DNA of 64,000 nucleotides from a virus, in IMG/VR virus record IMGVR_UViG_3300046791_000269, positions 2,954 through 66,953 of that record. One strand, 5' to 3'. The stretch's first letter is position 1. Each line of letters begins with the position of its first letter. The notes beneath the pieces were generated by a model that was not told where the DNA came from, ran no database searches, and was given only the letters and a program-made list of their open reading frames with translations. This document shows positions 20,392 to 41,580 of the stretch, one piece after another. A program made the position numbers and the translations under genes.

Positions 20392-20865
20392 CTAAACCGC
20401 GCTGCCTACGTCCTGACCGTAAACGTCGACACCCTGGTAGTAGATGTTCGACGTGTTGAACTCGACCGGCACGACCAGCATGTCCGGGCCACGCTTGTAA
20501 GACTGCTCGACGCTCGAAACGCGCGCCCTCCAGATCGTGTCCTGCGTGATGATGTTGTTCTTGAAGTAGGTGGCGCCGATGGTGAGGACCATCGTGCCGA
20601 CCCCGAACCCAAGCTCCGCGGCAATCGCAGCCCAGTAGTCCCACTGGGCCTTCTGGACCGTCATCGCCGTCTCGTGCTCGGCCTCGCCGTCGGTCCAGTC
20701 CTGAACCGTCCGGTGCGAGCCGTACATGGGCTCGCGGTTGATCTTCGTGGAGTAGCTCAACTCTTCGAGCATTCCGACGAGCCCGATGGAACCCTGCGTG
20801 GTCACGAGCTCGACCGAGCAGTTCTGAAGGTCCATCGTGATGTTGTTGACCGTGACAGTTGCCAT
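20392..20865 (-). CDS. Tail tube protein
   Basis: 157 aa, immediately after the sheath gene. Confidence 0.65.
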   Translation of the reverse strand: MATVTVNNITMDLQNCSVELVTTQGSIGLVGMLEELSYSTKINREPMYGSHRTVQDWTDGEAEHETAMTVQKAQWDYWAAIAAELGFGVGTMVLTIGATYFKNNIITQDTIWRARVSSVEQSYKRGPDMLVVPVEFNTSNIYYQGVDVYGQDVGSAV

Positions 20866-20867
20866 CG

Positions 20868-22361
20868 TTACACCGCCACCGATCGGGAGAGACCCACGGT
20901 CGCTTCAAGGTTTTCCATCGGAGGCAGCGGGACTGCCCTCCACGTCGCCTTGACGATGCGCGTACCGAACACGTCATTCGTCTGGTCGATTGTCGCGCCC
21001 TGCTCCTCGACGTGGTTCGGTTGTCCGTCCACCGTCGGGCCGCGCATGACTTCCGCGATCTGCGCGTTGATGGCGCTTTCCATCTGCTTGGCCGCCACCG
21101 GGTGAATCGGCCGCTGCGTCACGCCCGGGACTCTGATGGTCGAAACCTTCGAGTTCCGGTAGCGCGCAAGCGCCATGTCGAACACCGTGGTTCCCTCGTC
21201 GAGGGTCACGCCGAAATCCCAGTAAAGGAAGTCGGAGCCGGCCGGGCTCTTGAGGTAGCCGTTCGTCGGGAAGAATCCGGGTCCGCTCTGGTCGGTGCGG
21301 AACGTGTTGGTCTTGTCCGCTTCGGTGAAGATCGGCGCCTTCATCTCGTCGTTCGAGATGGCCACGACGCCGTCCATCGGACCGGACGCCACGCGCCCGA
21401 GGTTCTCGGAGATTTGCGCCCGAACCGCCCGGAGGAAGTTCGAGTGGATCTCAGAGACGCGCGGGATCGCGAAGCCAGCGAAGGGCTGCGGGCTGATGCG
21501 CTCCTCGAGGCCGTACTGGACAGCCACGCGGGAGTTGGCGAACACGCCGCCCACGCTGGTCAGGTAGTTGGCGCTCGTATCGATCGAGCCGCCGTCCGCC
21601 ATCGCGCGGGCAAAGTGCTTGCTCGTGGCGAGCGTCGACATGTGTGTAGCGATAGCCGCGAGAACCGTTGCCGCCGCAGACGCCGACGCCGGATTGCCGG
21701 CAAAGCAGACCTTGCGGATCTTCCGGTTGTTGAGGAGCGGCGACGCGAGGAGTGCCGTGATGGCTGTGCCGAGGTCGGTCGTGTTGTAGTGCGGGCACGT
21801 CGAGGTGCCGGTGAACACGTCGCCGAGTTCGAAGAAGGTCGGGCCGCCACCGGGCGTAAACGTCCACGTGAACCCAGCCCCGGGCACAGCGAACGTTCCG
21901 CCGGCCGGGATGATGATCTCCTCAGAGAACGTCCGGTCCGTGTCGGCCGTCGCGTTGGTGCGGTCGAGTGAGTAGTCGAACTTGCCGACTCCCACCGTTC
22001 CGGTCTTCTTGATGCGGATCTTGACCGCAAAGTCGTGCGTCGCTCCGCCGGCGGACACCGTCATGGTGCCGGTGCTCGTGCCGATACGAGCGACGGTGAT
22101 CGCGCTGTTCACGCCAGCAACGGTCGCCGCCGTCTTCAGAAAGAAGCAGCCGCCGATCGCGTCGATGCAGGAGAGCGCGATGTCAACGCCGGGCCCGCGC
22201 CCCACGGCGGTCTTGAACGCCTGTGGATCTGTCCCCATGTAGAGCGTCGCGGCTGTGCCGGCGCTCGACGGGGCAATGACAAGCGGGAAATTCGCTCCGC
22301 CCGAGACGAGCTGGAGCCCGCCATCCTGGACCGTGATGGTAACTGTGCCCGGATAGGCCAT
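20868..22361 (-). CDS. Contractile tail sheath protein
   Basis: 497 aa; sheath-like sequence character and position. Confidence 0.75.
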   Translation of the reverse strand: MAYPGTVTITVQDGGLQLVSGGANFPLVIAPSSAGTAATLYMGTDPQAFKTAVGRGPGVDIALSCIDAIGGCFFLKTAATVAGVNSAITVARIGTSTGTMTVSAGGATHDFAVKIRIKKTGTVGVGKFDYSLDRTNATADTDRTFSEEIIIPAGGTFAVPGAGFTWTFTPGGGPTFFELGDVFTGTSTCPHYNTTDLGTAITALLASPLLNNRKIRKVCFAGNPASASAAATVLAAIATHMSTLATSKHFARAMADGGSIDTSANYLTSVGGVFANSRVAVQYGLEERISPQPFAGFAIPRVSEIHSNFLRAVRAQISENLGRVASGPMDGVVAISNDEMKAPIFTEADKTNTFRTDQSGPGFFPTNGYLKSPAGSDFLYWDFGVTLDEGTTVFDMALARYRNSKVSTIRVPGVTQRPIHPVAAKQMESAINAQIAEVMRGPTVDGQPNHVEEQGATIDQTNDVFGTRIVKATWRAVPLPPMENLEATVGLSRSVAV

Positions 22362-23341: not shown

Positions 23342-23752
23342 CTACTTGAGTCCGAGCGTCAGGAGACAGTGCGTGTTCCAGATGCGGTCGAAGCTGTTGT
23401 CCCAGCTACCCGGCACGCGGCGACCCGGTGAAAGCGCGCGGCGGCGGGAGAAATAGCCGCGGTAGGTAGCCCGCGATCCGATGGTGAAGCCGAATCGGGA
23501 GAGGGTTTTGACTTGGTAGCTCGAGCGGAGCTTCCCGGTCTTGCCCTGGCCGATGCGGCGACCGTCTGGGCGTTTCTTGGGAGCCCAGGGACGGCCAAAC
23601 GGGTCGGCCTGCTTGGCGAACTCGTCGTCGGTGCGGCTCAGTGACTCAGCGGCGAACTTGGCCGAGACATCGTGGAGCGAATTCGGGCTCCCGAGCGCCA
23701 GGATCCCGCGCTGCCACTCGTCGAGTACGCCAAAATCACCGGTCAGGCCCAT
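23342..23752 (-). CDS. Head-tail joining protein candidate (136 aa)
   Basis: Internal ATG of track ORF 23342-24268, whose N-terminal 172 aa are Arg-rich shadow. ATGA overlap with the upstream gene. Confidence 0.45.
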   Translation of the reverse strand: MGLTGDFGVLDEWQRGILALGSPNSLHDVSAKFAAESLSRTDDEFAKQADPFGRPWAPKKRPDGRRIGQGKTGKLRSSYQVKTLSRFGFTIGSRATYRGYFSRRRALSPGRRVPGSWDNSFDRIWNTHCLLTLGLK

Positions 23753-24204
23753 CAGGTGAACCCATCGAGAGACTCGTTCGTCGCCTGCACGAACAGCATG
23801 CAACGGAGCGGCTTGATTTCGACGTGGACGATGCTGAACCGCTCCCACGCCGGATAGAGAGGTCCGCGCAGGAACACGAAGCGGCTTTCGCCATCCTCGA
23901 GCGCGCGGACAAATTTCGATGTATCGAATCCGCCGCCTGCGAATGCCGGCGTGATGGGTCCGACCGTCCAGAGGTTTCCCGGGGCGTTGCCGAACGGGAT
24001 GTCCTCGCCCTTGGCCTGCTTTACGCGCGGGCTCTGTCCGCCAGCCTCGACGATCGCGAATTCCTCGCGAACGATCGTGCCGTCGCCACTCTCGGGGTCG
24101 GCCCACTCGAAAACGAGCTTGGCTTGGTAGCTGCGAAACCCATACGCACCCGCAATGGCCCGCCCGTTGTAGACGGTGGGAAGTAGGTCGTCGGCGAGGG
24201 TCAT
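23752..24204 (-). CDS. Head-tail connector/neck protein candidate (150 aa)
   Basis: Good composition. Confidence 0.5.
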   Translation of the reverse strand: MTLADDLLPTVYNGRAIAGAYGFRSYQAKLVFEWADPESGDGTIVREEFAIVEAGGQSPRVKQAKGEDIPFGNAPGNLWTVGPITPAFAGGGFDTSKFVRALEDGESRFVFLRGPLYPAWERFSIVHVEIKPLRCMLFVQATNESLDGFT

Positions 24205-25031
24205 CAGACTGGGTGGTGCGCGATGTACTCGGGTTGCTCACCAACTCGAGCGGCAAGGGCACGCGCAAGCACAGCGATCCCGTCTGTCACGTCTGTGGGC
24301 TTGAGCTCGGCGCGACGCTCGGCCACGTGGTTGCGGCGAGCCTCAGCGGAGTTCAGGAGCGCCCGACACTGCTCGACGATGCGGGCCGGGCTGAGCCTCC
24401 GCAGCGGGTCCGTGTCGTTCTCTGTCAGGACGCAAGCGCCGCGGGAGTCGAGGAAGAACGTCCGCGTCTTGTCGCTCGGGTCGCTCTCGCGCTGCTTGAT
24501 GTCCACGATGACCTTGGCGCGGTCTACGAGGGCATTCCGCTCAGCGCCGAAGACGTTGAAGTGGCACTCTGGGTTGAGGCCGGCGTCCTGGAGTTTGGTG
24601 AGTAGCTCTACGCGGCGCTCGGTGAGCGAGCCGTAGAACAGGATGTCGATGTCTTTTGGTACGTCCGCCGGCGTCTGCTCGTACCGACCCGGCTCGACGA
24701 CAGCCAAGCCCGTACCGTAGCCGTGAGCCGAGTCCCACACGCAGAGCGCTCGACTGAGCTTCTCTACGTAGGATGCTGGGAACGACCCGCTGCCGGGGAC
24801 CTCGGTCTGGTAGATGATGACCGGGTAGTTCGGGAGGACAACGCCCTCGCGGTGGGCGCCGATGACGATCTCGATGGCGCCTTTGAGGGCTCCGGCTGCG
24901 TGGTCCTGGGCGAAATCATTGGCTCGCCACACCTCGTGGCCGGCCGCTTTCAGTGCAGCGGCGAGACAATCCGCGATGTCCTCGAGGCACCGCCACCACC
25001 GGAGGCGGGGCAGCACGACCGAGAATTTCAC
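24204..25031 (-). CDS. Glycosyltransferase-like protein (GT-B-like C-terminal region)
   Basis: DIDILFYGSL..R..FNVFG pattern resembling GT1-type C-terminal domains. Weak call. Confidence 0.45.
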   Translation of the reverse strand: MKFSVVLPRLRWWRCLEDIADCLAAALKAAGHEVWRANDFAQDHAAGALKGAIEIVIGAHREGVVLPNYPVIIYQTEVPGSGSFPASYVEKLSRALCVWDSAHGYGTGLAVVEPGRYEQTPADVPKDIDILFYGSLTERRVELLTKLQDAGLNPECHFNVFGAERNALVDRAKVIVDIKQRESDPSDKTRTFFLDSRGACVLTENDTDPLRRLSPARIVEQCRALLNSAEARRNHVAERRAELKPTDVTDGIAVLARALAARVGEQPEYIAHHPV

Positions 25032-25864
25032 GACGGACCGTCAGGGTGGATGTGGACCGGAAGCGGTCCGTACATCTTTACCGCCGGCGCTTGGCCATTC
25101 GGTTTCGACTCGGCCGGCACGCTCGCGTGCGGGTCTTGCCGAACCTCGGGGGTAGTATCGGGCGTGCGGTTCGCCTTGGTGGGCGTAACGTCATCTTCGC
25201 GTGGAACGAAGACCTGCTCGCCGTAGTGCTCGACAACCACGCCGCGATGCATCCAAATCTCGCCGCCGAGGTTCGTCCACCTGCGACAGAACGCGATGTC
25301 CTCGCCAGCGTAGCTAACGCCCTGCTGGAACGTCGGCGACCAGAGCCCCGTGATGATGCCGTAGCCCTTCACTTCGTAGACGAGGCTTCGGTAGGCGCCC
25401 GCCATCCGCTCGATCACGGCCCGCTCAATGAGCATGAAGCCGGCCGGGACGTGCTTGCACTCCCAAAGCGGCAGATCGATCTCGGGGCCGCGCGCCCTGG
25501 CGTTCGGATAGAGGGTCGCGAAAGGTTCGCCCTCTTGGCGCCCCGTGTAGTCGGCGGGGATTTCGCGGTTTTCCTGCTTCTTCGAATATGTGCCGGCGAT
25601 GAACGGCTTCCTCGTGTCGAGGAGTGCCTGGATCTGCTCCGGCCCAAACCCGATGTCCGAGTCCACACAGAGCATGTGTGTCGCTGGACTGTCGAGGAAG
25701 CCGTCGGTCAGGAGGTCGCGATTTCTCGGAAGGATTGGCCCGTGCTTCTGGGCCATCTGCATCCGTTCATGAAAAACATGCGCGGTCCTAAGAACGCCCT
25801 GGAAATACGGGATATGTACGCGGCCGTCATGGGTCGGTGTGCAGAGATAGAGTGTCGGTTTCAC
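25028..25864 (-). CDS. Glycosyltransferase, GT-A fold with DxD motif
   Basis: LCVDSDIGF (DxD) and YAGEDIAFCRRW motifs. Confidence 0.55.
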   Translation of the reverse strand: MKPTLYLCTPTHDGRVHIPYFQGVLRTAHVFHERMQMAQKHGPILPRNRDLLTDGFLDSPATHMLCVDSDIGFGPEQIQALLDTRKPFIAGTYSKKQENREIPADYTGRQEGEPFATLYPNARARGPEIDLPLWECKHVPAGFMLIERAVIERMAGAYRSLVYEVKGYGIITGLWSPTFQQGVSYAGEDIAFCRRWTNLGGEIWMHRGVVVEHYGEQVFVPREDDVTPTKANRTPDTTPEVRQDPHASVPAESKPNGQAPAVKMYGPLPVHIHPDGPS

Positions 25865-25891: not shown

Positions 25892-26290
25892 TCAGCCGAG
25901 AGAAATCTCCCCGGTATTCGGCGCCGAAGTGCCGAAGTAGCGCCCGTACAATTCGACCCCAAACGATTGTCGCAGCCGCTCGATGAGCATCTTGCCGCGG
26001 CCCATTGCGTCAACCGACGCTCCGTTAGACTCGGTGGTGGTGTTGTACCACTCGACGTCGCCCGTGATGGCCTTGAGCGAGCCGGTCGAGCTAGCAGACG
26101 CTCCCGCGGTCGCAATGACAGCGTCGATCGTCACGAGCTCGGTAAGGATTGTCTCCACCGCGGTCTGCTCAACAGCAGACCCGCCCACCTTGTCCATCAT
26201 CCCCTCGAGTTGAGGGTCGAGATCGTAGAACCCGAGCGGGCGCCCGAGGTATCGACGGATGGATACCTTTTGCGTTTCGGTGAAGGCCAT
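25892..26290 (-). CDS. Hypothetical head/connector protein (132 aa)
   Basis: Position. Confidence 0.45.
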   Translation of the reverse strand: MAFTETQKVSIRRYLGRPLGFYDLDPQLEGMMDKVGGSAVEQTAVETILTELVTIDAVIATAGASASSTGSLKAITGDVEWYNTTTESNGASVDAMGRGKMLIERLRQSFGVELYGRYFGTSAPNTGEISLG

Positions 26291-26292
26291 TG

Positions 26293-26775
26293 TCAGCTCG
26301 TGGCCGACTTCGGCCCTTCTAGTTTCTTCGGCTTGCGCTCAGTCAACTCGAGCTTCCGCGTAGTCTCCGCAATGAGTTCCTCGGCCGCCTTCGTGTCGGC
26401 CTTGGCCGATGCGAGTTCGGACTCAAGAGCCCTCACGCGATCCGATAGCGCCACCGAACGAGCCTCAGCCGTTTCGCGGCGCGACTCGGCGGCCTGGATC
26501 TCTGCGCGGGCCGCTTTTGCGTCGGCTTCGGCCGCGGCCAGCGACTCCTTCAGCCGCAGATACTCGTCAGAGCGAATCGTCGCGCGCTCTTCCTCGGCCA
26601 CCCGTCGCGCCTTTGTCTCTGGCGCGACGGGGATCTCTGCAACGGGGAACTTCTGCGCAACCAGATGTGCAACGAGATCGCCTGGCACTTCACATGCGCC
26701 ATAGGCGTCCCACCGGTATTTCCTACCGAGGGCCTCCCAATCGAGCCGATGCTGCGTCTGGTTGTGGAGAAGCAT
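26293..26775 (-). CDS. Coiled-coil protein (160 aa)
   Basis: Long heptad-like AEAxAKA repeats. Confidence 0.45.
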   Translation of the reverse strand: MLLHNQTQHRLDWEALGRKYRWDAYGACEVPGDLVAHLVAQKFPVAEIPVAPETKARRVAEEERATIRSDEYLRLKESLAAAEADAKAARAEIQAAESRRETAEARSVALSDRVRALESELASAKADTKAAEELIAETTRKLELTERKPKKLEGPKSATS

Positions 26776-27311
26776 CAGGCCGGCACCACGTCCACGTAGA
26801 TGCCGATCGGCCCGTCCTGCGAGTGGTCGTTGAGCTGTTCCTTGATCTCGTTCACGAGAACGAGGAGGTCAGTGGCGTCCGTCGCGTCGGCGGTCGTGAC
26901 CGTGTTGGTGTCGTCCGCCGTGTAGTGGACGTTCGACGCCGTGCGGTGCGTGTTGAACTGGGCCTTGATCTCGTTCGCGAGAGCCACGCAGGTAGCGGTG
27001 TCGGTGCCGTCCGCCATCGTGATCACGGCGGATGTCGCCGTGTCGTGCGCCTTGCCGAGTGCGTCCGTGAAGTGGGCGTCCGTATAGGCTTTGCACTCAT
27101 TGGTGAGGGAAAAGCCCGTGGCGTCGTCCGTCGCGTCCGCGGTTGCGATGGTGTAGGCCGAAAATGCGTAGTCGCGCGAGTCCGGACGCAACGTCGACGA
27201 CATTTTCGAGATGTGGAATTTGGTGCTGATGCCATCGAGTACCAGCTTGTTGTTCGCGGCAAGAAGCGCGGACAGCAGGTCGGTATCGACGTCTCTCGGT
27301 TGAATAGCCAT
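26775..27311 (-). CDS. Capsid accessory/decoration candidate with internal repeats (178 aa)
   Basis: ANEIKAQFNTH and VNEIKEQLNDH repeats. Lies downstream of the major capsid protein gene. Confidence 0.45.
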   Translation of the reverse strand: MAIQPRDVDTDLLSALLAANNKLVLDGISTKFHISKMSSTLRPDSRDYAFSAYTIATADATDDATGFSLTNECKAYTDAHFTDALGKAHDTATSAVITMADGTDTATCVALANEIKAQFNTHRTASNVHYTADDTNTVTTADATDATDLLVLVNEIKEQLNDHSQDGPIGIYVDVVPA

Positions 27312-27380: not shown

Positions 27381-28448
27381 CTAGGGTGCGAAGTTCAGCT
27401 TGACGAAGCGCCGCACGCCGCACGTGCGGGGATTCTTCACGCGAAGCTCGCAGTACGTCTTGGCCATGTAGGGCGTCGCGTCGCCGGTCTTCGCGAGCTT
27501 CACGACGGCCGCCATGAGCGGGATGTCGCCGAAGCCGTCGTTCGCCGTGAGCACGGTCTCCGGGTCGAACATGAGCTGCGGGAAAGCCGCCGCAAACTCG
27601 GGCGGAGGCAGGATCTGGAGGCTCACGAACTCGCTGTTGACGTAGTAGATGCGTCCCGAGCCGCTGCCCGACTCGAGCGTGGCGTCCTTGTCCTTGATGA
27701 ACACGCAGCCATCGACCTCGATGCCGCTGTAGCCGCCGGAAAGAACGATCTTCCCGCGCGCCGTCGTGAACTCCGTCACCGTCTGGATCAGGCGGCGCTG
27801 CGAGTCGAAGAGGTTACCGACCTCGTTGAACACGCTGTGATGACAAAGCGCGATGTCGGGCGCCATGCCCGACTGAACCGTGATCTCTTTCAGATCCTCG
27901 CGGATCTGGCCGAGCGACAGGTTCGTCGCAACGCCAGGGTTGACGAGATACGGTTTCCACGTGGCAACCGACCCGCGGGCGATCGTTGCGTACGTGTTGG
28001 TGTTGTCGCCGATGGCCTGGTCGAGACCCGTGACCTGCTTCGGGGAGGCCGCACCATCGCCGGAATAGACGTGGAGATTGACCTTGCTCACGAGCGCGGC
28101 GAGCGAGTTCGTCACCTGGCGCGCGATCTGGTTCAGATTGCCCTGGGGGGTGCGCGAGGTACGCGCGGCCGCCTGAGCTGGGCCAGTGACGGACGAGCTC
28201 TGCTCGTAGTAGGCCCAATTGAGAACGGCCGAGTCCTGGCCATCCGAAGTCGCGGCTGCGGGATTCGCGCCTTCGAGCATTGCTTGAGCGGTGGCGCCGT
28301 CCTTCTCGGCCACCCACGCGCAGTTTTTGCCCTCGTCCATGCGGATCGGGAGCACGCGCAGCGCGGAGCAGGTTCGGTTGACGGTGCGGACGACATCGCC
28401 CGCGTAATTCTGCGCGAGCACGGTAGTTGCGATACTTTGAACGGCCAT
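27381..28448 (-). CDS. Major capsid protein
   Basis: 355 aa, directly after the scaffold gene. Confidence 0.65.
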   Translation of the reverse strand: MAVQSIATTVLAQNYAGDVVRTVNRTCSALRVLPIRMDEGKNCAWVAEKDGATAQAMLEGANPAAATSDGQDSAVLNWAYYEQSSSVTGPAQAAARTSRTPQGNLNQIARQVTNSLAALVSKVNLHVYSGDGAASPKQVTGLDQAIGDNTNTYATIARGSVATWKPYLVNPGVATNLSLGQIREDLKEITVQSGMAPDIALCHHSVFNEVGNLFDSQRRLIQTVTEFTTARGKIVLSGGYSGIEVDGCVFIKDKDATLESGSGSGRIYYVNSEFVSLQILPPPEFAAAFPQLMFDPETVLTANDGFGDIPLMAAVVKLAKTGDATPYMAKTYCELRVKNPRTCGVRRFVKLNFAP

Positions 28449-28496: not shown

Positions 28497-29360
28497 TCAG
28501 TCGATGAGCGAGGCCGGATCGATTCCGAGTGCCTCGAACTGCTGGAGTGTTCTGGTTGCGGGATCGCCGCTGAGCGGCTGTCCGCCGCCGCCACTTCCGG
28601 GGACACGCGGACCGGGTGGTCCGCCGCCGCCAGTGGGCTTGGGTGCTGCCCGAAAAAGCTTCATCCCTGGCTCTTCGAGAAGAACCGGGATCGCTTCCTC
28701 GAGCGCGATGTCCTCGTCTGCTTCCGGTGCGCCCTTGTACGGGGCGCGCTTCACGCGGAAGAGCGCGTTTCCCTGTTCGTCGACCTTCAGCCGCCCCTGA
28801 ACCAGGGTGAGATGATCGATCGCAATGTCGGTCATGCCGGGCGCGAGCTTGTCGGCGAGCCCCGAGCGGAGCTTCAGCTTCGCTGCGTCAAGCTTTCGAT
28901 TCGTCTCCGACTCGGCACGTAGGCGCGCCTCTTCCTTGCGCGCGGTCTCACTCGCCTCGAGCTTCGTAGCAAGTTCTTGGAGCTGCCGAGCTACAGCGTC
29001 GTCGCTGGCCGCCTTGCCGCCCTTTGCTTTGCCGCCGTCACCGCTGCCGCCGCCAGAACCGCTGTCGTCGGGCTTTGGGATGAGTTCGGTTACGACGGGG
29101 CCAATCAGGCCCTTCCAGTCGACGCCCTTGAGTTGCTCAGCAAGCGCAGGCTGGCGCTTGAGATGACTCGTGACGGCCGCGTTGACGGTCTGGCCAATGG
29201 CCGCGAGCTGCTCTTCCGAGAAGAGCGGCTTCGGCGGATCTCCACCGCCGCCATCGTCTCCAGCCTTGTCCAACAGGGGGAACGGTCGATTGAATAGGAG
29301 CATGCCAATCCTCTTCCGGCCGATGGCTGTGGCCGTTCGCCTTGTGGGGGCGTTACCCAT
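28497..29360 (-). CDS. Capsid scaffolding protein
   Basis: Gly-rich linkers plus a long charged coiled coil, located between the portal and capsid genes. Confidence 0.65.
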   Translation of the reverse strand: MGNAPTRRTATAIGRKRIGMLLFNRPFPLLDKAGDDGGGGDPPKPLFSEEQLAAIGQTVNAAVTSHLKRQPALAEQLKGVDWKGLIGPVVTELIPKPDDSGSGGGSGDGGKAKGGKAASDDAVARQLQELATKLEASETARKEEARLRAESETNRKLDAAKLKLRSGLADKLAPGMTDIAIDHLTLVQGRLKVDEQGNALFRVKRAPYKGAPEADEDIALEEAIPVLLEEPGMKLFRAAPKPTGGGGPPGPRVPGSGGGGQPLSGDPATRTLQQFEALGIDPASLID

Positions 29361-30013: not shown

Positions 30014-30576
30014 AGTCTTGCTCGCAAAATCTTTGCCCCGCGCCTGACGAGCTCGGGTTCAATTTGGTCCCAGACGGTGCGACAACCGACGGCCATCGCG
30101 CTCTGCCCGGGGACTCGCTCGGCCACTTGCGTGTCGAGCTGGATGAAAAGGTCGGCGGGAAGGCCCGTCGGGTTCCTGGCCAGCCATTTTCTCGTGGCTC
30201 GGGCCATGATGACGTTCTCGCAGACCATCGGGCCCGGCTCGTCGAGCCACTTCGCTGCGGCGACCGATCCCTGATCGGGACCGAGGCCGACATCCTTCAG
30301 CTCTTCGCCGTGATGGTACTTTCGACCGTCGACCGCGAGCTTTCGAGCCAAGTGCGACTTACCCGCTCGTGGGCCTCCTGAGATGACGATCCGCTCATGC
30401 TGCTGGTGGCTCAGCAGTCTTGCCAGGCCGTCCAGTGCCGTTCGGTGGGCCGCTCGTTGGGCTGGCGAAAAGCGCTGCGGCGGCTTCTCGCTCGAGCCTC
30501 GCGTCCTCTGCGGGATCCGTTGTGCCAACCTTGATCTCCTCGCGGATGATCGTCTTCGTGGTCTCGGGCAGGTCAC
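30010..30576 (-). CDS. P-loop NTPase / small kinase-like protein
   Basis: Walker A motif GGPRAGKSH. No ATG/GTG/TTG between the portal stop and the Walker A, so the start must overlap the portal 3' end. Start is uncertain. Confidence 0.45.
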   Translation of the reverse strand: MTCPRPRRRSSARRSRLAQRIPQRTRGSSEKPPQRFSPAQRAAHRTALDGLARLLSHQQHERIVISGGPRAGKSHLARKLAVDGRKYHHGEELKDVGLGPDQGSVAAAKWLDEPGPMVCENVIMARATRKWLARNPTGLPADLFIQLDTQVAERVPGQSAMAVGCRTVWDQIEPELVRRGAKILRARL

Positions 30577-31936
30577 GGAGTAGCGCCTCGGCGACTCGCG
30601 TGTTTGCCTCGATCGCGAAGGTCTTGCTCGGGATGGCCCCGACCTTGTCTTTCAACAGGGCGAGGTTCGCGAGGAAAGCGTCGATGTCGAGCGCCGCAAA
30701 GTCGTCCAGGCCCTCAACGGACCATTCGAACTCTTCACCGCGTGCCCGACTGATGGTGTCGAGCGTGTACTCGATCGTCTCTTTGACGATGCGGGAGAAC
30801 GCCACGAGAACCACCCGCGTGCTCTCCATGTCGCTCGCCTTCGAATCGGCTGAGCGGCCCACGGCGGCTGCGTTGTTCTCGACTCCGAGCGCCATCTGAT
30901 GGGCGACTCGGAAGATTTCGTCCTTCTCGGCCTTGATCTCAACGTCGAGGGCGGCGAAGTGCGCGCCATCGGGGGAGGACCATTGCGCCTTGTCATCCTT
31001 GTGTAGGATGACCTCGTAGCCAGGTCCGGAGATTTGCTTTTCGAACTCGTCGGGCTTGCCGACGAAGTACTCACGCAGCGCGTAGCACGTGGCCGCCATC
31101 GACCAGGCCTGCGCGTTCACCTTGCGGAAGTGCGCGAGTTGCGGGGAGCGAAGCCTGTTCGCTACCCAAAGCGCCGGCGGGAGGTCCAAGCAGACGAGCG
31201 GGACGCGGCCAAAGCCGTGAGTCACAGCGCCGAGGCTCGGAACTTCCTGCTTGGCGTCCGGCCTTTTGCTCTTGTCGTAGCTGATGCGGAAAGTCTCGAC
31301 AGCCTCGGCCGTCAGGAACTCCCACGTCTCGGTGATGGTTTCGCGAGAGCCTGAAACCCCGTTGCGCTTGGCCGTAGCCTTGTGGGTGATTGCCCACTCG
31401 AGCCGGCCGTCCTCGCCGGTGTCCCAGTCGAGAACGTTGCATGTCTCGAGGACATCAACCCAGCATTCGCCAAGTTTGCGATCCTCGAATTCGGCAGCGC
31501 TCGCGGGTGTCGGCGCCCCGTCGTTCGGCTGATTCACACGGAGCCAGCCCGTGCGCGCAACCATCGCGTTCGTGAGCAGCTGCTTGAACGCCGCGTCGAT
31601 GTCTGTCCCAGCCCGGTCGCAGTCCTCGCGGAATGCGTCCCAGTAGGGCCCGGTATTGACCGCCTCGTCCTTGCCGGCGAGCCGCGCCTTGAGCATGGGG
31701 CTCGAGACGAAGAGCATCGACGTGAAGTAGTCGATGATGGGCCCGAGGTAGTTCCGGTACTGCGCCTCTTTCAGCCGCGTTTCGTAACGCTGCTGACGTT
31801 CCCGCTCCCGCCTTGGGAGCAGCGTAGGGTAGAGCTTCTCGAGCTTTTCCCCACCCTCGTAGAGCGCCTCGAGCTCGCGCTGCCGCTGCTCGTTGTAGCT
31901 CGGGTGGCGTTGGTTGAGGTCGGCGTAGGTGGGCAC
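30395..31936 (-). CDS. Portal protein
   Basis: 513 aa, immediately downstream of the large terminase. Confidence 0.7.
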   Translation of the reverse strand: MPTYADLNQRHPSYNEQRQRELEALYEGGEKLEKLYPTLLPRRERERQQRYETRLKEAQYRNYLGPIIDYFTSMLFVSSPMLKARLAGKDEAVNTGPYWDAFREDCDRAGTDIDAAFKQLLTNAMVARTGWLRVNQPNDGAPTPASAAEFEDRKLGECWVDVLETCNVLDWDTGEDGRLEWAITHKATAKRNGVSGSRETITETWEFLTAEAVETFRISYDKSKRPDAKQEVPSLGAVTHGFGRVPLVCLDLPPALWVANRLRSPQLAHFRKVNAQAWSMAATCYALREYFVGKPDEFEKQISGPGYEVILHKDDKAQWSSPDGAHFAALDVEIKAEKDEIFRVAHQMALGVENNAAAVGRSADSKASDMESTRVVLVAFSRIVKETIEYTLDTISRARGEEFEWSVEGLDDFAALDIDAFLANLALLKDKVGAIPSKTFAIEANTRVAEALLRDLPETTKTIIREEIKVGTTDPAEDARLEREAAAALFASPTSGPPNGTGRPGKTAEPPAA

Positions 31937-31937: not shown

Positions 31938-33461
31938 TCAGCTCTGGAGTCGCCCGTACTTGAAGACCGGGATCTGCCTTACGGACCAGCCGATCGCCTC
32001 AGCTAGAACGAGGTCGTCGTTCTCGCCTGGCGCCGCCTCGGGCTTGCCATTCGAATTGGTGACGAACGTCCGGAACTGCCCGAGGACCGCACGGTCAGGC
32101 GATGACCAGTGTCCGTTCCGGTGCGCGTCGTCGAGCGCGTCCAGCATGATCGGGCGCGTCACGGGATTCGTGGGCCACCCGTTCTTCTTGTCCGCGTGCT
32201 CGTAAATCTGTTTGTACTTCTCTTCACGCTCGAGGGCTTGAAGGGTCGCGTGGCCGTGGTTGTTCCGCTCCACAGCGATCAGCGCATCGTTGTACTCGTG
32301 CCCCAACTTGGCGCCGGCGCGGGCGAGCTCCCACGGCGGGTACTGGCCGTCGATGGTGGCGCAGTGCTCCCCAGTGACGCGCTCCCGAAGGATGCCGCCG
32401 CTCGGGTCACCGCCGCCGCCCTCTGCACAGTCGAGGGCCAGGAGGTAGGCCTTGCTGGGCTCGGGGCGCCTGAAAATGCGGACGCGGTCGTGGTCTCGGC
32501 GCTCAAGCGGCTGAGTCGCCAGCTTGAACAGTTTCGTCGTGACCGATTGGTCAAAGAACCCGCGTCCAGAGACGAGAAAGCACGTCTCGGCGTCGCTCGG
32601 ATATTCCTGGTCCGTCTTCTCCTGGCCACCCTTGTCGGCGACCTTGGCGCGATACCATTTGAGCTGTTCTTGCGTGACACCGGCCTTGGCCAGCGCATCT
32701 TCACGCTCAGTCGTCGGCTCGATCTTCTCGTCCGGCTCGAGCGGCGTTTGGTACTCAGTCGCCGCGAACCAGGGGAAAAAGTGGAGCTTGTAGGCGCCCG
32801 CTCCCGATGCGGCCGATTGGCATCGGCGGTAGAACGCCCCGGATGCCCCGTTCGGTGTGGACTCGTCGACGATCTCGGAACCGTGCTCGACGCCCGGCAC
32901 GCACTCGAGAAGCGCGTTGAGCGTCTCGTCGGCATACTCGTAGAACGCCGTTTCGGTGAGGTGTAGCCGCGAGACCGTTCCCGCGCGCCCCTTCTTCACC
33001 GCCGCGGCCTCTGATGCGCCAGCCTCTACGATTCGGAGCGATGCGTCCCGGTCCGCCAACGACCACTCACCGGCCGTCCGGGTGTGGAAGTTCAGTTTGA
33101 GGCCTGCCCGTTCGAGTGATTCGAACATCACCCGGTAGTTCTTGCTGAGGAGCTTGAACGGGTCGTGGTCGGTGAGGGACTGGCAGGTGGCCACGACGCG
33201 AGCGCCGGGCACCGTGAGGAAATGGTAAACGTCGCGCGCCTGCTCAAGCGTCGTGAAGCCAACCTGGCGGGGCTTCAGAACAACGTCGCGCTGCGTACGT
33301 TCGCGGCAGTAACGCCGCTGGATGCCGTTGAGGACGAGCTTCTGACGCCCACCGCTCTTCGGTACGATGTCGAGGATCCCGGCGAACCGCTCGAACTTGG
33401 AGAACGCCCAAGCTAGGAATTCGGCTCGGGCTTTTCGGTCGTCTCCGGCTCCGTCGGGCAT
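31938..33461 (-). CDS. Terminase large subunit
   Basis: 507 aa with an ATPase N-terminus and a nuclease C-terminus. Confidence 0.8.
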   Translation of the reverse strand: MPDGAGDDRKARAEFLAWAFSKFERFAGILDIVPKSGGRQKLVLNGIQRRYCRERTQRDVVLKPRQVGFTTLEQARDVYHFLTVPGARVVATCQSLTDHDPFKLLSKNYRVMFESLERAGLKLNFHTRTAGEWSLADRDASLRIVEAGASEAAAVKKGRAGTVSRLHLTETAFYEYADETLNALLECVPGVEHGSEIVDESTPNGASGAFYRRCQSAASGAGAYKLHFFPWFAATEYQTPLEPDEKIEPTTEREDALAKAGVTQEQLKWYRAKVADKGGQEKTDQEYPSDAETCFLVSGRGFFDQSVTTKLFKLATQPLERRDHDRVRIFRRPEPSKAYLLALDCAEGGGGDPSGGILRERVTGEHCATIDGQYPPWELARAGAKLGHEYNDALIAVERNNHGHATLQALEREEKYKQIYEHADKKNGWPTNPVTRPIMLDALDDAHRNGHWSSPDRAVLGQFRTFVTNSNGKPEAAPGENDDLVLAEAIGWSVRQIPVFKYGRLQS

Positions 33462-36835: not shown

Positions 36836-37027
36836 GCCGAAGTCGGGCGGGGTCAGAAAGTCCACGTCGGCTCGTCCGTATCCGCCGTCGAATGGCGCCT
36901 CAAGCCGAGGCAGTGCGTCGCCGTCGACGGGAATGCGCACGCAATGCCCGGCACCGTCCTTGCGGGTCTCGCGGCGCCGCCAGAACTTGCAGCTCCCGCA
37001 CCTCGGCTCCGGCCCGGAGATCATCAA
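36803..37027 (-). CDS. Small Cys-containing protein (74 aa). Its C-terminal 10 aa (CVLHEPKGTE) are encoded by the repeat
   Basis: Cys pairs CGSC..C; ATGA coupling. Confidence 0.4.
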   Translation of the reverse strand: MMISGPEPRCGSCKFWRRRETRKDGAGHCVRIPVDGDALPRLEAPFDGGYGRADVDFLTPPDFGCVLHEPKGTE

Positions 37028-37950
37028 GCCACCATCTCTCTTCCCCCAACCCGCGCTAGCCTCGCCATCGTCTCCGCCACGCCCTCAACGAGCGACCCGG
37101 TAAACGTCATTCCGGCCCGCTCGATCTTCTCTCGCGACACCACGTAGGAAAGCTGGTTCATGATGGGCGAGTCGACGAACACGGTCTCGAGCCTCGGTGC
37201 GTGTCGCCGGATGATCTCGACGATCTGCCCAACCGTCGCGTTTTCGGTCACAACGTTGTAGGTCTCGCCACCGAACAGGCCGCGCTCCACAGCGAACCAG
37301 ATCGCTCGGCACGCATCGAGGATGTCGAGATACGGCCGCCCCTGATCGAGCGCCGTCCGCCACACCGTGATCGGCTGCCCCGTGCTCGCCTGCCAACAGA
37401 ACCGGTTGACCGCCGTGTGAAAGCGCATGCCCGGTGAGATTCCGAAGATCGTTCCAAAGCGCAGGATACATGCGTCGTGTCCGCCGGCCCTGAGCATCTC
37501 CTCGCCCCTGGTCTTGCTCTCTGCGTAGGGGCTCTGTGGGACGACCGGAGACGCCTCGGTGACGATGCCCTCGTTCTGCCCGTAGACGCTCGTGGACGAG
37601 GCGAACACCGGACGGGCGCCGACTGCACGACAGGCCGCCGCCACTCGCTCGGTTCCCTGGAAGTTGACGCGCTCAACCTCAGCCGCTCGTCCAAAGCTCG
37701 TGGCCGCGTCCGTCAGGGCCGCGAGATGAACGACCGCCCCGCAGCCGTCGAGTAGCGGCTCTAGCTCACTCGTCACCACGTCGGCCTCGGTGAACTGAAA
37801 TCCGATACCGCGTGGCAAATCGAACAGCGAGCAGAGCCGCTGGGTCGAAAGGTTGTCGATGAGCCGGACCTCCTCGAATTGGCCGGGCTGGATCGTGCGG
37901 ATGAGCGCCGAGCCGATGTGGCCGAGTGCTCCAGTGATAGCGATTTTCAT
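37024..37950 (-). CDS. NAD-dependent sugar-nucleotide epimerase/dehydratase (SDR family)
   Basis: MKIAITGALGHIGSALIR Rossmann motif. Internal ATG of track ORF 37024-38496. Confidence 0.8.
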   Translation of the reverse strand: MKIAITGALGHIGSALIRTIQPGQFEEVRLIDNLSTQRLCSLFDLPRGIGFQFTEADVVTSELEPLLDGCGAVVHLAALTDAATSFGRAAEVERVNFQGTERVAAACRAVGARPVFASSTSVYGQNEGIVTEASPVVPQSPYAESKTRGEEMLRAGGHDACILRFGTIFGISPGMRFHTAVNRFCWQASTGQPITVWRTALDQGRPYLDILDACRAIWFAVERGLFGGETYNVVTENATVGQIVEIIRRHAPRLETVFVDSPIMNQLSYVVSREKIERAGMTFTGSLVEGVAETMARLARVGGREMVA

Positions 37951-38825
37951 GGGTGCTCCGTGTAGTGCGCGCGAGTGAGCTCGATACCCTCTGTGATCCA
38001 CACGGCCGGACGCCAGCCCGTGGCGTGGCGGAATGCCGACGTGTCCATCACCGCGTTCCGTGTGTCGATCGCAGCGAGTACGGTGTCCGGCGTTACGTGC
38101 TTGAAGTTGCCGCCCGCGGCAATCGCCGCCACCCTTGCGAATAGGTGAGCCGCTCCAGAGCCGACAACGAAGTGCCGCCCGTTCGTCGTGGCCTGGTTGG
38201 CCGCAGCGAGCATGAACGCCCGACACACGTCGTCGAGGTAGACGTAGTCCCGGGTCCAGTCTCCGGCGCCGTAAACCTGGACCGGTTCGCCCCTGGTTGA
38301 CTGTCGGATCATTCGGTTCAAGACGCCGCGCGTCGGGCCGCTCTCGCTCGTGCTTTGGCCGTAGACGTTGGCCAGTCGGAGCGTGCAGCCGCGTGCCCAT
38401 CCGCGCCGGCAGGCGTGCTCGAGCGCCATCTCGGCCATGCATTTGTGTAGGTCGTAGACGGTGAGCGGTGCGTCGGTCATGCCCTCGTGAATGCAAGACT
38501 CTGCCGGCACGCCAACCTGCGTGGCCGCGCCCGCGAATACGATGAACGGCTTTGGCTCGTGCCCGCGGAACTCCTCGATTAGCCCGTACATGGGCTCGAC
38601 GTTCGCGGACAGATCCTCGAGCGGGTCCTCGTCAGCGTCGCGCGCGCTCGTCTGCGCAGCAAGGTGGAAGACCACCTCGACATCCTTGTCTGGGCCAACA
38701 GCCGCCCCCGCCTCCACGAGCATTTGTACCAGACGCGAGCCGATGTACCCGCTTGCGCCCGTGACGGCGCAGCGTCGGCCCTTGAGCCACTCGATCGCGT
38801 TCAACGGATCTCCCTCTTCAGCCAA
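37947..38825 (-). CDS. NAD(P)-dependent SDR reductase/epimerase (RmlD-like size)
   Basis: VTGASGYIGSRL motif; about 292 aa. Confidence 0.75.
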   Translation of the reverse strand: MAEEGDPLNAIEWLKGRRCAVTGASGYIGSRLVQMLVEAGAAVGPDKDVEVVFHLAAQTSARDADEDPLEDLSANVEPMYGLIEEFRGHEPKPFIVFAGAATQVGVPAESCIHEGMTDAPLTVYDLHKCMAEMALEHACRRGWARGCTLRLANVYGQSTSESGPTRGVLNRMIRQSTRGEPVQVYGAGDWTRDYVYLDDVCRAFMLAAANQATTNGRHFVVGSGAAHLFARVAAIAAGGNFKHVTPDTVLAAIDTRNAVMDTSAFRHATGWRPAVWITEGIELTRAHYTEHP

Positions 38826-39253
38826 TCGTAGCCGATGGCTGGATCGTTGTGCGGGATCCGTAGCTCGTCGTCCGGGTTGTACTCATGCGAGGTCACATAC
38901 AGGAGCTCGCAGTCGGTGAGAGCCCGGCAGCCGTGCGCCACGTTCGTGGGCACCCTGACGAGCCGAGCCGGGTGGTCGTCGCCCATCAGGATCTCTTGCG
39001 TCTCCTTGTGCGTCGGGTTGCCGTCTCGCATGTCATGCATGACGAGGAGCAGGGCGCCGCGCACCACGTACCACCAATCGATCTGCCGGCGATGCAAGTG
39101 CCACGCCTTGATCGCGCCGGCCCGCATGCGCGAGTGGCTCAGTTGCCCGAAGCCCTCAGCGAAACACGCGTCGGTCTTTCGGACGATCTCGCGGAAAAAT
39201 CCCCGCTCGTCGTCGCGGGTGTCCAGGTTTCTGAGGACAACGCCGGAAATCAT
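38801..39253 (-). CDS. Cupin NDP-sugar 3,5-epimerase / 3,4-ketoisomerase (RmlC/FdtA-like)
   Basis: ERGFFRE..WHLHR His pair; about 150 aa cupin. Confidence 0.65.
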   Translation of the reverse strand: MISGVVLRNLDTRDDERGFFREIVRKTDACFAEGFGQLSHSRMRAGAIKAWHLHRRQIDWWYVVRGALLLVMHDMRDGNPTHKETQEILMGDDHPARLVRVPTNVAHGCRALTDCELLYVTSHEYNPDDELRIPHNDPAIGYDWLKREIR

Positions 39254-40431
39254 AGGATCTTGACCTCCGGCACGTGCGTGATGAACCGGCCACCGCGCTC
39301 GCGATAGGCTGTCTCTTTCGCCAGGATCTCAGCCGCGTGGTTCCAGGCGAACAGGAGCATGTAGTCCGGTGGGTCAGCGTAGAAACGCTCGGGCGAGACA
39401 ACCGGGATGTGGACGCCGGGAGAGAGCTTCCCTTGTTTCCCTGGCGTCGTGTCGGTGATGTACTCGATGAGTTCGGGTCCGATGCCGGCGTAGTTCGTGA
39501 CGGTCGTGCTCTTGGACGTTGCCCCGTAAGCTGCCACGCGCTTTCCGTCACTCTTGAGCGTCTCGAGCAGGCCGCGCAACGTTGCGCACTTCGCGTCGAC
39601 TCGTTCCTGGAATGCTGCGTAGGCCGCCTCGTCGCCAAGACCCAACACAACCTCCTTGCCGAGCAGGCGGAACACATCGTCTGAGGCCGCCCGCTCGCCC
39701 CGGCACGCCACGGTGTACCGCATTGAACCGCCGTGCGTCACTTGCCACTCCGCGTGGACAAGCTCGAGGCCGGCCGCGTTCGCCAGTGCCGCAACAGACG
39801 TGAGCGAGAAGTAGGACGCGTGCTCGTCGTAAATCTGATCGAACGAGCAAAGCCTCAGAATGTCCCCCAGGTAGGGTTCCTCGAAAATGAACAGGCCGGG
39901 CGGTTTCAAAAGGACAGCAACGCCCCGAAAGAAGTCCGCCGGGTCCGGGACGTGGCAGACGACGTTGGACGCGATCACGGCGTCGGCTTGCCCGTGCTCC
40001 TTGACCAGATCGCCGGCCCGCTCCTCCGTGAAGAACCCGCCCACGACGGTGAGGCCACGTTCACGCGCCGCATAGGCAACGTTGGCGCTCGGCTCGATGC
40101 CGAGATGCCGCCGACCCGCGAAATGCTGGAGCATGATCCCGTCGTTGCAGCCAATCTCAACGACGAGCCCACCCGATGGCGTGCGTGACTTCACCGACTC
40201 GGCGAACGCGGCGAAGTGCTTGGCCATGGCGGAACTCGACGAGGAGTAGAACGCATACTGATCGTGGAACATCCGCTCGGGTGGGACGAGGTCGAGCAGC
40301 TGGACCAGCTTGGTATCCGGGTCGAAACCCGCGCGGAGCGGAAAGCGGGGCTCGTCTGCGATCTCTGCCGCGTCGAGAAAGCCGTTGGCTATCGGCATCG
40401 GGCCGAGGTCGAGGAAGGGGCGGAGACTCAT
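39250..40431 (-). CDS. NDP-hexose C-methyltransferase-like SAM-dependent methyltransferase (TylC3/TcaB9 family)
   Basis: LDLGPMPIANGFL N-terminus, class I SAM fold (VVEIGCNDG), C-terminal C-methyltransferase-like domain. Start inside repeat copy 2. Confidence 0.7.
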   Translation of the reverse strand: MSLRPFLDLGPMPIANGFLDAAEIADEPRFPLRAGFDPDTKLVQLLDLVPPERMFHDQYAFYSSSSSAMAKHFAAFAESVKSRTPSGGLVVEIGCNDGIMLQHFAGRRHLGIEPSANVAYAARERGLTVVGGFFTEERAGDLVKEHGQADAVIASNVVCHVPDPADFFRGVAVLLKPPGLFIFEEPYLGDILRLCSFDQIYDEHASYFSLTSVAALANAAGLELVHAEWQVTHGGSMRYTVACRGERAASDDVFRLLGKEVVLGLGDEAAYAAFQERVDAKCATLRGLLETLKSDGKRVAAYGATSKSTTVTNYAGIGPELIEYITDTTPGKQGKLSPGVHIPVVSPERFYADPPDYMLLFAWNHAAEILAKETAYRERGGRFITHVPEVKIL

Positions 40432-40460
40432 TCCGTTCCTTTTGGTTCGTGCAAAACGCA
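40428..40460 (-). repeat. 33-bp direct repeat copy 2
   Basis: TCATTCCGTTCCTTTTGGTTCGTGCAAAACGCA. Confidence 0.9.
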
Positions 40461-41090
40461 CAGCTTCCCGATCGAGTACGCCAAATTCTCTCGCGCCTTT
40501 TGCTCCCACCGCTCGCGTCCGTAGTCGGTGAAATAGATGCGCGGCCGCTCGAGGAACTTCTGGAGAATGGCCGCCCGCCCTGCCGCGAATTGCTCGTCGC
40601 CGATGAAAGGCCACTCGAGCCGGACGAGCCGCTCGTAGTCGTCGAAAGCCTCACGGTCGGCGCCGAGGATGGCGATGTCAGCATCAGATAGGATCGCCTC
40701 GTCCGGTTTCAAGTCGTGCGCGTCGTGGGCCGTGGCCATGATGAGCCGCTCAACCGTTGCCGCGAGGTCTGGGCGGCCGGCAGTCGTGAGCATCTTCCGC
40801 GCGCAGTCCGCCGATGCGAACTCGTCATCAGGTAGTCCCTGCAAAACGAAGTCGTGATACCAGGCGGCCCAGCGCAGAGCGGCCGTCTCGTCGGGCGTTC
40901 CGTTCCACATCGGCGCCGCCGTGATCTGATCGATGCGCGTCAGAACCCACATGATGTGATGGAGCGTGTGGTAGTGGCGCCGTGCTCCGCTGTACGCCTG
41001 GACGAGCGAGAGGAAAACGGCGTTCCCGTTGCCCTGACAGTTGGTGTCGCCCCAGAGGCGGTTGAATTCGATGCGGGGGATGAGGTTCAC
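40428..41090 (-). CDS. HD-superfamily metal-dependent phosphohydrolase-like protein
   Basis: RHYHTLHH ... WYHDFV His/Asp motifs. C-terminus CVLHEPKGTE is encoded by repeat copy 2. Confidence 0.55.
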   Translation of the reverse strand: MNLIPRIEFNRLWGDTNCQGNGNAVFLSLVQAYSGARRHYHTLHHIMWVLTRIDQITAAPMWNGTPDETAALRWAAWYHDFVLQGLPDDEFASADCARKMLTTAGRPDLAATVERLIMATAHDAHDLKPDEAILSDADIAILGADREAFDDYERLVRLEWPFIGDEQFAAGRAAILQKFLERPRIYFTDYGRERWEQKARENLAYSIGKLCVLHEPKGTE

Positions 41091-41353: not shown

Positions 41354-41580
41354 CGTTTCCCCTCCCACCGGCCCATCAGCATGCCCGTCGTCTGTTCGAG
41401 ACGCTGCGGGGCTGGTTGCTTGTTGGTGTCCGTGTACTTGTATTTGACATTGTCGATCTCGTAGTGAATCCCGTTCACGACCAGCACCGAACGCGGGTAG
41501 CGCTCGCTCTGGCTCGGGTGGTACAAAACTCCGGACGAGTACGGCCTCGCTGACTTGGGAACGGGGCGGCGTTTCACCAT
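41350..41580 (-). CDS. Hypothetical protein (76 aa)
   Basis: Internal ATG (MVKRRP..). Confidence 0.35.
   Translation of the reverse strand: MVKRRPVPKSARPYSSGVLYHPSQSERYPRSVLVVNGIHYEIDNVKYKYTDTNKQPAPQRLEQTTGMLMGRWEGKR

Follow-up and report, generated by a model that had tools for sequence, protein, structure and literature searches.

Two glycosyltransferase genes in the head block of an uncultivated temperate phage: a candidate cassette for head-protein glycosylation

The uncultivated virus record IMGVR_UViG_3300046791_000269 (IMG/VR) includes a stretch of 64,000 nucleotides (nt; positions 2,954 to 66,953 of the record; hereafter the window), in which two adjacent genes for glycosyltransferases (GTs) are located downstream of the head genes, including that of the major capsid protein (MCP), and upstream of the genes for the tail sheath and the tail tube (Table 1). 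Both open reading frames (ORFs), ORF-A and ORF-B, are tightly coupled to each other and to their surroundings. An AAGGGA ribosome-binding site lies 8 nt 5' of the ORF-A start codon, the ORF-A stop and the ORF-B start share the letters GTGA, and the ORF-B stop and the ATG of the following gene, p150, share TGATG. No sigma-70-like promoter was found across 19-34.5 kb of the window, and terminator-like sites in the same region are as frequent as in shuffled sequence, i.e., at the level of chance. Because of these overlaps, the ribosome-binding site and the missing promoter-like site, the pair is read as late and co-expressed, and ORF-A and ORF-B are predicted to be co-translated within the late structural operon. 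The G+C content at third codon positions (0.78 for ORF-A, 0.82 for ORF-B) is similar to that of the neighbouring genes. The phage itself is temperate, with an integrase gene about 27 kb from the GT pair. An earlier annotation made from the letters alone (the sequence-only reading) had described a GT-A gene with a DxD motif and a GT-B-like gene between the capsid and tail modules of a late operon. The ORFs were found at exactly the coordinates given there, and gene order, overlaps and the promoter search agree with the proposed placement.

For ORF-A, 70 homologous proteins were collected (E down to 1e-139), and the AlphaFold2 model built with their alignment reached a predicted local distance difference test score (pLDDT) of 91.4. 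The top 50 Foldseek matches of this model in the PDB, each with a probability of 1.0, have GT-A or nucleotide-diphospho-sugar transferase folds without exception. The best solved structural match is the glycosyltransferase A197 of Sulfolobus turreted icosahedral virus (STIV; E 2.6e-9), and further matches include the GT domain of LH3, ColGalT1, mimivirus R699, majastridin, B4GALNT1 and SpsA. Among the matches in BFVD, uncharacterised Caudovirales proteins come first (template modelling [TM] scores 0.6-0.73), followed by giant-virus PLOD-type GT domains and one protein of Paramecium bursaria chlorella virus 1 (PBCV-1). On the sequence level, ORF-A showed no Pfam, NCBIfam or PDB match above threshold. 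Its only PHROG matches are to family 1574, the function of which is unknown, and, weakly, to one with a glycosyltransferase annotation; its relatives reached Pfam models solely below threshold (Anp1 in 7 of 67, best E 0.012; Glycos_transf_2 in 3).

Throughout 67 ORF-A homologues, R49, D68, D70, G142, D189, F192 and H213 are invariant. The elements of the GT-A core (DxD, G-loop, xED, C-His), as defined by Taujale et al. (2020; PMC7185993), were mapped onto ORF-A by order and secondary structure, without superposition. The xED of this core, at the start of helix alpha-F, is the catalytic base in inverting enzymes and has a counterpart in ORF-A. The conserved aspartate suggests that ORF-A is metal-dependent and probably inverting. 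Beyond the core, the protein carries a C-terminal tail, the linker of which was modelled with low confidence (pLDDT 58-64).

ORF-B has 41 homologous proteins (E down to 1e-112), and its AlphaFold2 model (pLDDT 93.1) shows two beta/alpha/beta halves. All significant Foldseek matches in the PDB are GT-B enzymes, e.g., SenB, Tll1591, MshA, FUT9, TarM and MurG. Again, no Pfam, NCBIfam or PDB sequence match exceeded the threshold; PF13524 (Glyco_trans_1_2/CgeB) was reached below threshold by 9 of 40 relatives, with a best E of 4.4e-4. Accordingly, the fold and model assignment which the sequence-only reading had proposed as a check returned GT-A and GT-B folds by structure and no curated sequence family. 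The residues P67, E77, W99, L131, F132, G134, S135, R140 and R171 are invariant, and R190 and E204 nearly so. The LFYGS loop (L131-S135), R140 and R171 fall into the C-terminal, donor-binding half, as placed without ligand superposition. A profile search of 1.84 billion representatives assigned 6,305 members (representative clusters) to this GT-B family, 1,214 of them at E <= 1e-30, which occur either as stand-alone proteins of about 275 amino acids (aa) or as a module within proteins of up to 2,440 aa. No hydrophobic or membrane segment was found in either GT (maximum 19-residue hydropathy 0.87 and 1.07). The identity of both proteins as glycosyltransferases is nearly certain from the models, and both are predicted to be soluble and catalytically intact.

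Table 1. Genes and protein features of the window that are discussed in the text (positions are those of the window).
Feature	Position	Strand	Basis or remark
ORF-A, GT-A-fold glycosyltransferase	25028-25864	-	278 aa, GTG start; ORF call, AlphaFold2, Foldseek
ORF-A DxD motif (D68-S-D70)	25655-25663	-	directly after strand 63-67
ORF-A G-loop glycine G142 and C-His H213		-	both invariant in 67 sequences
ORF-A xED motif (E188-D189)			start of helix 188-198; D189 invariant
ORF-A C-terminal tail (residues ~220-278)	25031-25207	-	P/T/A/E-rich linker, then KMxGxLPVH(I/V)H
ORF-B, compact GT-B-fold glycosyltransferase	24204-25031	-	275 aa, GTG start; ORF call, AlphaFold2, Foldseek
p150, conserved	23752-24204	-	directly 3' of the GT cassette
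p132, small head-block protein	25892-26290	-	directly 5' of the GT cassette
p160, coiled-coil head-block protein	26293-26775	-	
p178, head-fibre/decoration-like	26775-27311	-	weak match to PHROG 6994 'head fiber'
MCP, SU10-like	27381-28448	-	start of head block; Pfam SU10_MCP 2.6e-6; PHROG major head protein 4.9e-16
Scaffold-like protein	28497-29360	-	
Portal	30395-31936	-	
Terminase	31938-33461	-	
Tail sheath	20868-22361	-	start of tail module; PHROG 'tail sheath' E 4.7e-4; DUF2586 18.4 bits (cut-off 26.4)
Tail tube	20392-20865	-	
SDR2, RmlD-like NDP-sugar reductase	37024-37950	-	308 aa; ATG at 37950 overlaps SDR1 stop
SDR1, NDP-sugar epimerase/dehydratase/reductase	37947-38825	-	VTGASGYIG NAD-binding motif
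RmlC-like cupin (resembles dTDP-4-dehydrorhamnose 3,5-epimerase)	38801-39253	-	Pfam dTDP_sugar_isom 1.1e-22
EvaC-type NDP-hexose C-methyltransferase	39250-40431	-	393 aa, first cassette gene; Pfam Methyltransf_14/13; JGI P0126 'methylation protein EvaC'
p220, unknown gene	40428-41090		upstream of the sugar cassette, 4-nt overlap
p184, unknown gene	41087-41641		upstream, 4-nt overlap
Integrase	52186-53445		

No related isolated phage was found, and deposited sequences include a single relative, an uncultured virus from Manatee Spring (MW202476, L001). About 20 kb were readable on each of the relatives' contigs, so that negative results cover at most 10 kb on either side of the GT pair. The head block of the metagenomic relatives reads MCP-p178-p160-p132-[GT]-p150, with variable occupancy of the GT position. 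GT-A and GT-B are carried together by the window, L003, L085, L166 and L168 as well as by L167, where a gene for a DegT-type sugar aminotransferase directly follows. GT-A occurs without GT-B in MW202476, L250, L268 and L269, and also on the P0074 contig, there followed by a methyltransferase-like gene. No GT is present in L251, L260, L256 and others, and in L251 and L260 p132 stands directly before p150. Besides the order with GT-A after p132, a second one (MCP-p160-p132-p178-GT-A) was found in L001 and L167 and, judged by gene sizes, on the P0074 contig, and a third one (MCP-p178-GT-A-p160-p132) in L268. Thus, p178 is located directly upstream of GT-A in L001, L167 and L268. In L167, the GT-bearing head block is moreover fused to another tail module, of the E217/PhiTE type. 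From these gene orders, the GT pair is taken to be an accessory cassette, restricted to the head block, in a lineage whose capsids are SU10-like. The fact that the cassette stays in the head block across three orders and a tail swap, often after p178, argues against a random moron, since a random insertion would hardly account for an accessory gene which was moved or gained several times and yet always stayed among the four small head genes.

Within this lineage, every phage with GT-B also has GT-A. A C-terminal tail of 55-60 aa extends GT-A in all six phages carrying GT-B (the window, L003, L085, L166, L167 and L168) and in none of the four GT-A-only phages with readable DNA (L001, L250, L268 and L269). 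GT-A occurs alone whereas GT-B does not, and the tail tracks GT-B, which suggests that GT-A primes, GT-B extends and the tail docks; the tail may be a docking peptide between both enzymes. AHHP(V/A) forms the C-terminus of GT-B in four of the six phages. Over a wider range of viruses, 80 viral loci were collected with GT-B as the seed, and 23 of them hold both GT families on the stretch retrieved (at most 10 kb to either side). In a T4-like contig with gp32, PhoH and ThyX nearby (L114, 451-11868), an island of two GT-A genes, Methyltransf_24, GT-B and Glycos_transf_1 directly follows the genes for a Gly-rich protein of 939 aa and a protein of 1,276 aa. In the Pelagibacter phage HTVC023P (L164; gp71, gp77 and gp78), the GT-A homologue gp78 adjoins gp77, for which the annotation reads 'glycosyl transferases group 1', and both are separated by a few genes from a 2-oxoglutarate (2OG)-Fe(II) oxygenase and a tail protein. 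This arrangement recalls the logic of hydroxylase plus GT in collagen and in mimivirus L230.

Relatives of both families in bacteria are repeatedly found beside genes for flagella and other surface proteins. For GT-B, 80 bacterial loci with full-length relatives were considered (E 1e-42 to 1e-69 against the profile). A flagellin gene lies within 0-3.8 kb of the relative in 17 of them, and flagellar genes within 10 kb in 22, compared with a rough expectation of about 1% for a random 20-kb window. These are minimum figures, as some flagellins of Alphaproteobacteria escape detection with the Salmonella FliC query. Acidobacteria and other phyla feature a recurrent island of flagellin, TPR-GT2, GT-B family protein and TylF-type sugar O-methyltransferase (L012, L025, L030, L038, L051, L073 and L078, from Acidobacteria and relatives). 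Giant proteins of 2,100-2,450 aa with a GT-B domain stand beside flagellin in L035, L037 and L077; that of L035, the one scanned with Pfam, also holds TPR, GT41, GT2 and methyltransferase domains. Likewise, a gammaproteobacterial metagenome-assembled genome encodes the GT-B domain inside a TPR-GT41-GT2-methyltransferase protein of 2,443 aa adjoining flagellin, accompanied by an EvaC-type C-methyltransferase (3e-73 to the phage enzyme), a 3,5-epimerase, SDRs and a nucleotidyltransferase.

The GT-A family gene, unannotated as 'hypothetical protein', is situated between fliJ and motB, within the cluster of flagellar genes, in three genera of Acetobacteraceae (L270, Acetobacter pasteurianus pAP22518-1; L274, Komagataeibacter saccharivorans p92689; L275, Aristophania vespae), and its product is by this position a candidate flagellin glycosyltransferase. 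In Acetobacter, a GT25 gene is also found near the homologue. In Mesorhizobium ciceri the GT-A family gene lies directly upstream of an autotransporter (L276, 7860-12004), and in Paraburkholderia ginsengisoli it is flanked by genes for a type I secretion system and for a Ca-binding protein of 909 aa (L271, 2431-12911); both homologues are possible adhesin glycosyltransferases. Members of both families are adjacent and convergent on plasmid byi_1p of Burkholderia sp. YI23 (GT-B BYI23_D001400 and GT-A BYI23_D001410; L277, 7842-9525). This pair adjoins genes for a 3D-domain protein, a Ser/Thr kinase and icmF of a type VI secretion system. The flagellar, flagellin and secreted-surface-protein contexts of the bacterial relatives point to protein acceptors and to cytoplasmic glycosylation of a structural protein. 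They argue that both families act in the cytoplasm on self-assembling or exported proteins, often with 6-deoxyhexose donors.

A possible donor pathway is encoded by the phage itself, as the sequence-only reading had noticed: four sugar-nucleotide genes at 37024-40431 encode an EvaC-type C-methyltransferase, an RmlC-like cupin and two SDRs, both of which keep their nicotinamide adenine dinucleotide (NAD) motifs. The junctions of the cassette overlap by 4 nt wherever the sequence was read. All four genes are collinear at 60-70% aa identity on two phage-like contigs (L278, 258-3677; L279, 1396-3781), on one of which an HNH gene follows. The cassette has the appearance of a mobile unit, carried by phages, for making a branched-chain deoxysugar. 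Since neither a nucleotidyltransferase nor a clear 4,6-dehydratase is present with the cassette, a nucleoside-diphosphate (NDP)-4-keto-6-deoxyhexose of the host is taken as its starting sugar, from which, we infer, the four enzymes would form a 3-C-methyl-6-deoxy-L-hexose. With a DegT aminotransferase or a methyltransferase gene beside the GTs in relatives, the sugar-tailoring genes look variable and the GTs the constant part. It is plausible that the branched deoxysugar serves as donor for these GTs.

Taken together, the position of the genes and the contexts of their relatives are consistent with the GT pair glycosylating a head protein of the phage, late and in the cytoplasm, a reading to which about an even chance is assigned. 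GT-A would put a first sugar on serine or threonine (Ser/Thr, S/T) of a head protein during head assembly in the cytoplasm, and GT-B, recruited via the C-terminal tail of GT-A, would add a second one. Donors would be NDP-sugars of the host and probably the branched 3-C-methyl-6-deoxyhexose of the cassette. The likeliest acceptors would be the fibre- or decoration-like p178 or the MCP. Because of its fibre/decoration-like character and its frequent position directly before GT-A, p178 is the best candidate, chosen by gene adjacency. It consists of three repeats of about 35 aa (TADATD...LANEIKxxxNxH) and is kept in all head-block relatives, GT-carrying or not. The capsid surface would thereby become coated with glycans, with masking, stability or adhesion as possible benefits.

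Several observations weigh against head-protein glycosylation. No acceptor protein was found by sequence features: S/T-rich C-terminal acceptor tails of the Che8 type are absent from MCP, tube and sheath, and across 17 relatives with and without GTs no insertion or S/T patch in MCP or p178 tracks the presence of the GTs. A 'LESGSGSG' insertion in the MCP, considered as an acceptor mark, showed no correlation with GT presence. In the window, two genes separate GT-A from p178. The cassette behaves as an accessory insertion at a hot spot, like morons with non-virion functions. Unlike flagellin GTs, the phage enzymes are without TPR or another substrate-binding domain, and the bare GT domain of FlmG does not bind flagellin (PMC7591256). 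Furthermore, in the relatives with readable DNA, the 10 kb to either side of the GT pair hold no homologue of the sugar cassette, so that the link between this sugar and the GTs is one we infer; the closest C-methyltransferase homologues are situated on other short contigs. Virion glycosylation as proposed by the sequence-only reading is therefore upheld in part. The tie to the head block, the operon coupling and the bacterial relatives favour it over the alternatives, but no acceptor was found and no feature of MCP or p178 follows the GTs. Its suggestion of Gly/Ser/Thr-rich substrates is only loosely borne out, with 20% Ser plus Thr in p178 and 26% glycine in the tail-region protein p501 described below, but without an S/T-rich tail on MCP or tube.

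The strongest competitor is a modification of a host envelope glycan (units of O-antigen, capsule or extracellular polysaccharide at the cytoplasmic face), during infection or from the prophage, by which receptors would be altered and either superinfection excluded or progeny spared adsorption to debris. The temperate lifestyle would suit this, as would the deoxysugar cassette, which is typical of O-antigen clusters, and the restriction of the GT cassette to some relatives. Additionally, the GT-B domain lies directly upstream of rmlC/rmlB-like genes in about 27 Rhizobium loci, a context that fits polysaccharide synthesis equally and hence also counts against a protein acceptor. Nevertheless, neither GT has a membrane segment or signal, the pair is coupled within the late structural operon far from the integrase and without a promoter-like site of its own, and the cassette has remained in the head block despite three rearrangements and an exchange of the tail module. 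Moreover, no Gtr-type, Wzx/Wzy-type or polyprenyl-phosphate GT genes were found among the Pfam-scanned ORFs of the window. Envelope modification is thus considered unlikely, and its Gtr-like form, the lysogenic conversion raised by the sequence-only reading, was rejected by topology, integrase distance and operon structure.

Still less probable is the glycosylation of a host protein, i.e., flagellin, pilin or an adhesin, which could for instance block flagellotropic or pilus-dependent superinfection. Such a role would agree with the bacterial settings of both families, namely flagellar clusters or neighbourhoods with autotransporter or RTX-like genes, but the phage GTs are bare catalytic domains without the TPR or substrate-binding modules of the bacterial islands, and late expression from the head block leaves little time to gain via a host appendage. 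Glycosylation of the phage DNA in the manner of the T4 alpha- and beta-glucosyltransferases (AGT and BGT), also named in the sequence-only reading, can be rejected as highly improbable: the GT-B fold of ORF-B, with AGT and BGT at structural ranks of only 23 and 41, and a phage-encoded DNA methylase are compatible with it, but the acceptor-base pathway was not found in the Pfam-scanned ORFs (no dCMP/dUMP hydroxymethylase, thymidylate-synthase-like, TET/JBP, 5-hydroxymethyldeoxyuridine kinase or other gene for hydroxymethyl-pyrimidines in nearly all ORFs >=120 aa), the GTs are located in the head block outside the replication module, and their closest structural and genomic relatives indicate protein acceptors.

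With regard to the remainder of the window, connector-sized genes lie between p150 and the sheath, and tape measure and baseplate genes beyond the tube. The sheath assignment is based on weak sub-threshold matches only; in MW202476, the gene at the syntenic position carries the annotation 'Mu-like prophage tail sheath gpL', and phmmer gave no match between it and the sheath of the window. No solved structural relatives were found for p178 and for p220, which adjoins the sugar cassette. The scaffold-like protein has Gly/Pro-rich runs (GGGGDPPKP, SGSGGGSGDGGKAKGGK and GGGGPPGPRVPGSGGGGQP), and antisense within its gene ARAGORN called a tRNA-Ser(CGA) at 29183-29258 (+), which is probably spurious; the window yielded no credible tRNA. 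The tail-fibre region encodes p501 (501 aa; 5436-6941, -), which is without a Pfam match. Near the tail-fibre and baseplate genes, a protein with a GH16 glycoside hydrolase domain is encoded (2563-3456, -; E 1.2e-18), which may degrade glycans as part of the virion or serve in lysis.

Compared with known systems, the phage pair appears closest by function to virion glycosylation in mycobacteriophages and by mechanism to bacterial flagellin glycosylation. As reported by Freeman et al. (2023, Cell Host Microbe; in the account cited in PMC12363180 and PMC11256854), phage-encoded GTs glycosylate capsid and tail-tube proteins of the mycobacteriophages Che8, Corndog and Myrna. In that account, O-glycosylation of the phages' own capsid or tail proteins by GTs (Che8 gp110, Corndog gp38 and Myrna) was shown, whereas here it is proposed from genes. 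Several GTs per phage, sometimes with methyltransferases, are described for mycobacteriophages and found here alike. Nevertheless, the GT genes of F1-cluster mycobacteriophages are located near the right genome end (PMC11256854), in contrast to their position inside the head block here. A contractile tail, a SU10-like capsid, a branched-deoxysugar cassette of its own and the lack of S/T-rich acceptor tails in the proteins inspected further distinguish the present phage. The enzymes also appear unrelated: no Mycobacterium phage was among the 61 tblastn matches of GT-A in 50,697 phage records, GT-B gave no phage match there at all, and no mycobacteriophage GT was among the top 50 BFVD matches of GT-A.

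The comparison with flagellin glycosylation is based on Caulobacter FlmG, a TPR domain plus a GT-B domain of 288 aa (PMC7591256), to which the 275 aa of ORF-B are likened by size only. Flagellin islands and the phage pair share soluble cytoplasmic GTs and a self-assembling structural acceptor, presumed on the phage side, and the islands pair a GT-A-fold enzyme with this GT-B family, with O- and C-methyltransferases and deoxysugar genes alongside. In contrast, a position at flagellar loci is a feature of the bacterial relatives and not of the phage genes, TPR domains occur in neighbouring or fused bacterial proteins and not in the phage GTs, and the presumed acceptor is a virion protein here and flagellin in FlmG-type systems. 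The GTs of archaeal and giant viruses (STIV A197, PBCV-1, mimivirus R699 and L230-type PLOD GT domains) resemble ORF-A at the level of the fold only, with 9-16% identity and TM scores of about 0.4-0.6. They belong to another host domain and virion architecture, and a lysyl hydroxylase is absent here; giant viruses likewise pair GTs with rare-sugar pathways of their own. The Shigella and Salmonella phages with GtrA/GtrB/GtrC are, as here, temperate phages with accessory GT cargo. Gtr proteins are membrane proteins, their genes lie beside int/att and they are expressed from the prophage. The GTs considered here, however, are soluble, are encoded among the late head genes at a distance of 27 kb from int, and match no GT2 or Gtr model.

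To our knowledge, mycobacteriophages are the only phages for which glycosylation of the virion by enzymes of the phage itself has been demonstrated; there, the glycans shield the particles from antibodies. It is conceivable, though doubtful as a whole, that an uncultivated, probably proteobacterial lineage with contractile tails has co-opted flagellin-type O-glycosylation, with GT-A priming and a tail-docked GT-B extending with the phage-made 3-C-methyl-6-deoxyhexose. The cassette offers an initial clue to the function of two large GT families without a curated model, the bacterial GT-B members of which appear to be part of islands for the glycosylation of flagellin and surface proteins, and a small soluble pair of GT-A and GT-B might perhaps be of use in protein glyco-engineering. 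If the proposed function is true, the phage would provide the first case of a glycan-coated virion outside the actinobacteriophages, with a coat built by two previously uncharacterised GT families which also serve bacterial flagella. Virion glycosylation would then extend to an unrelated lineage with unrelated head-module enzymes, in the presence of a phage-borne pathway for a rare branched sugar.

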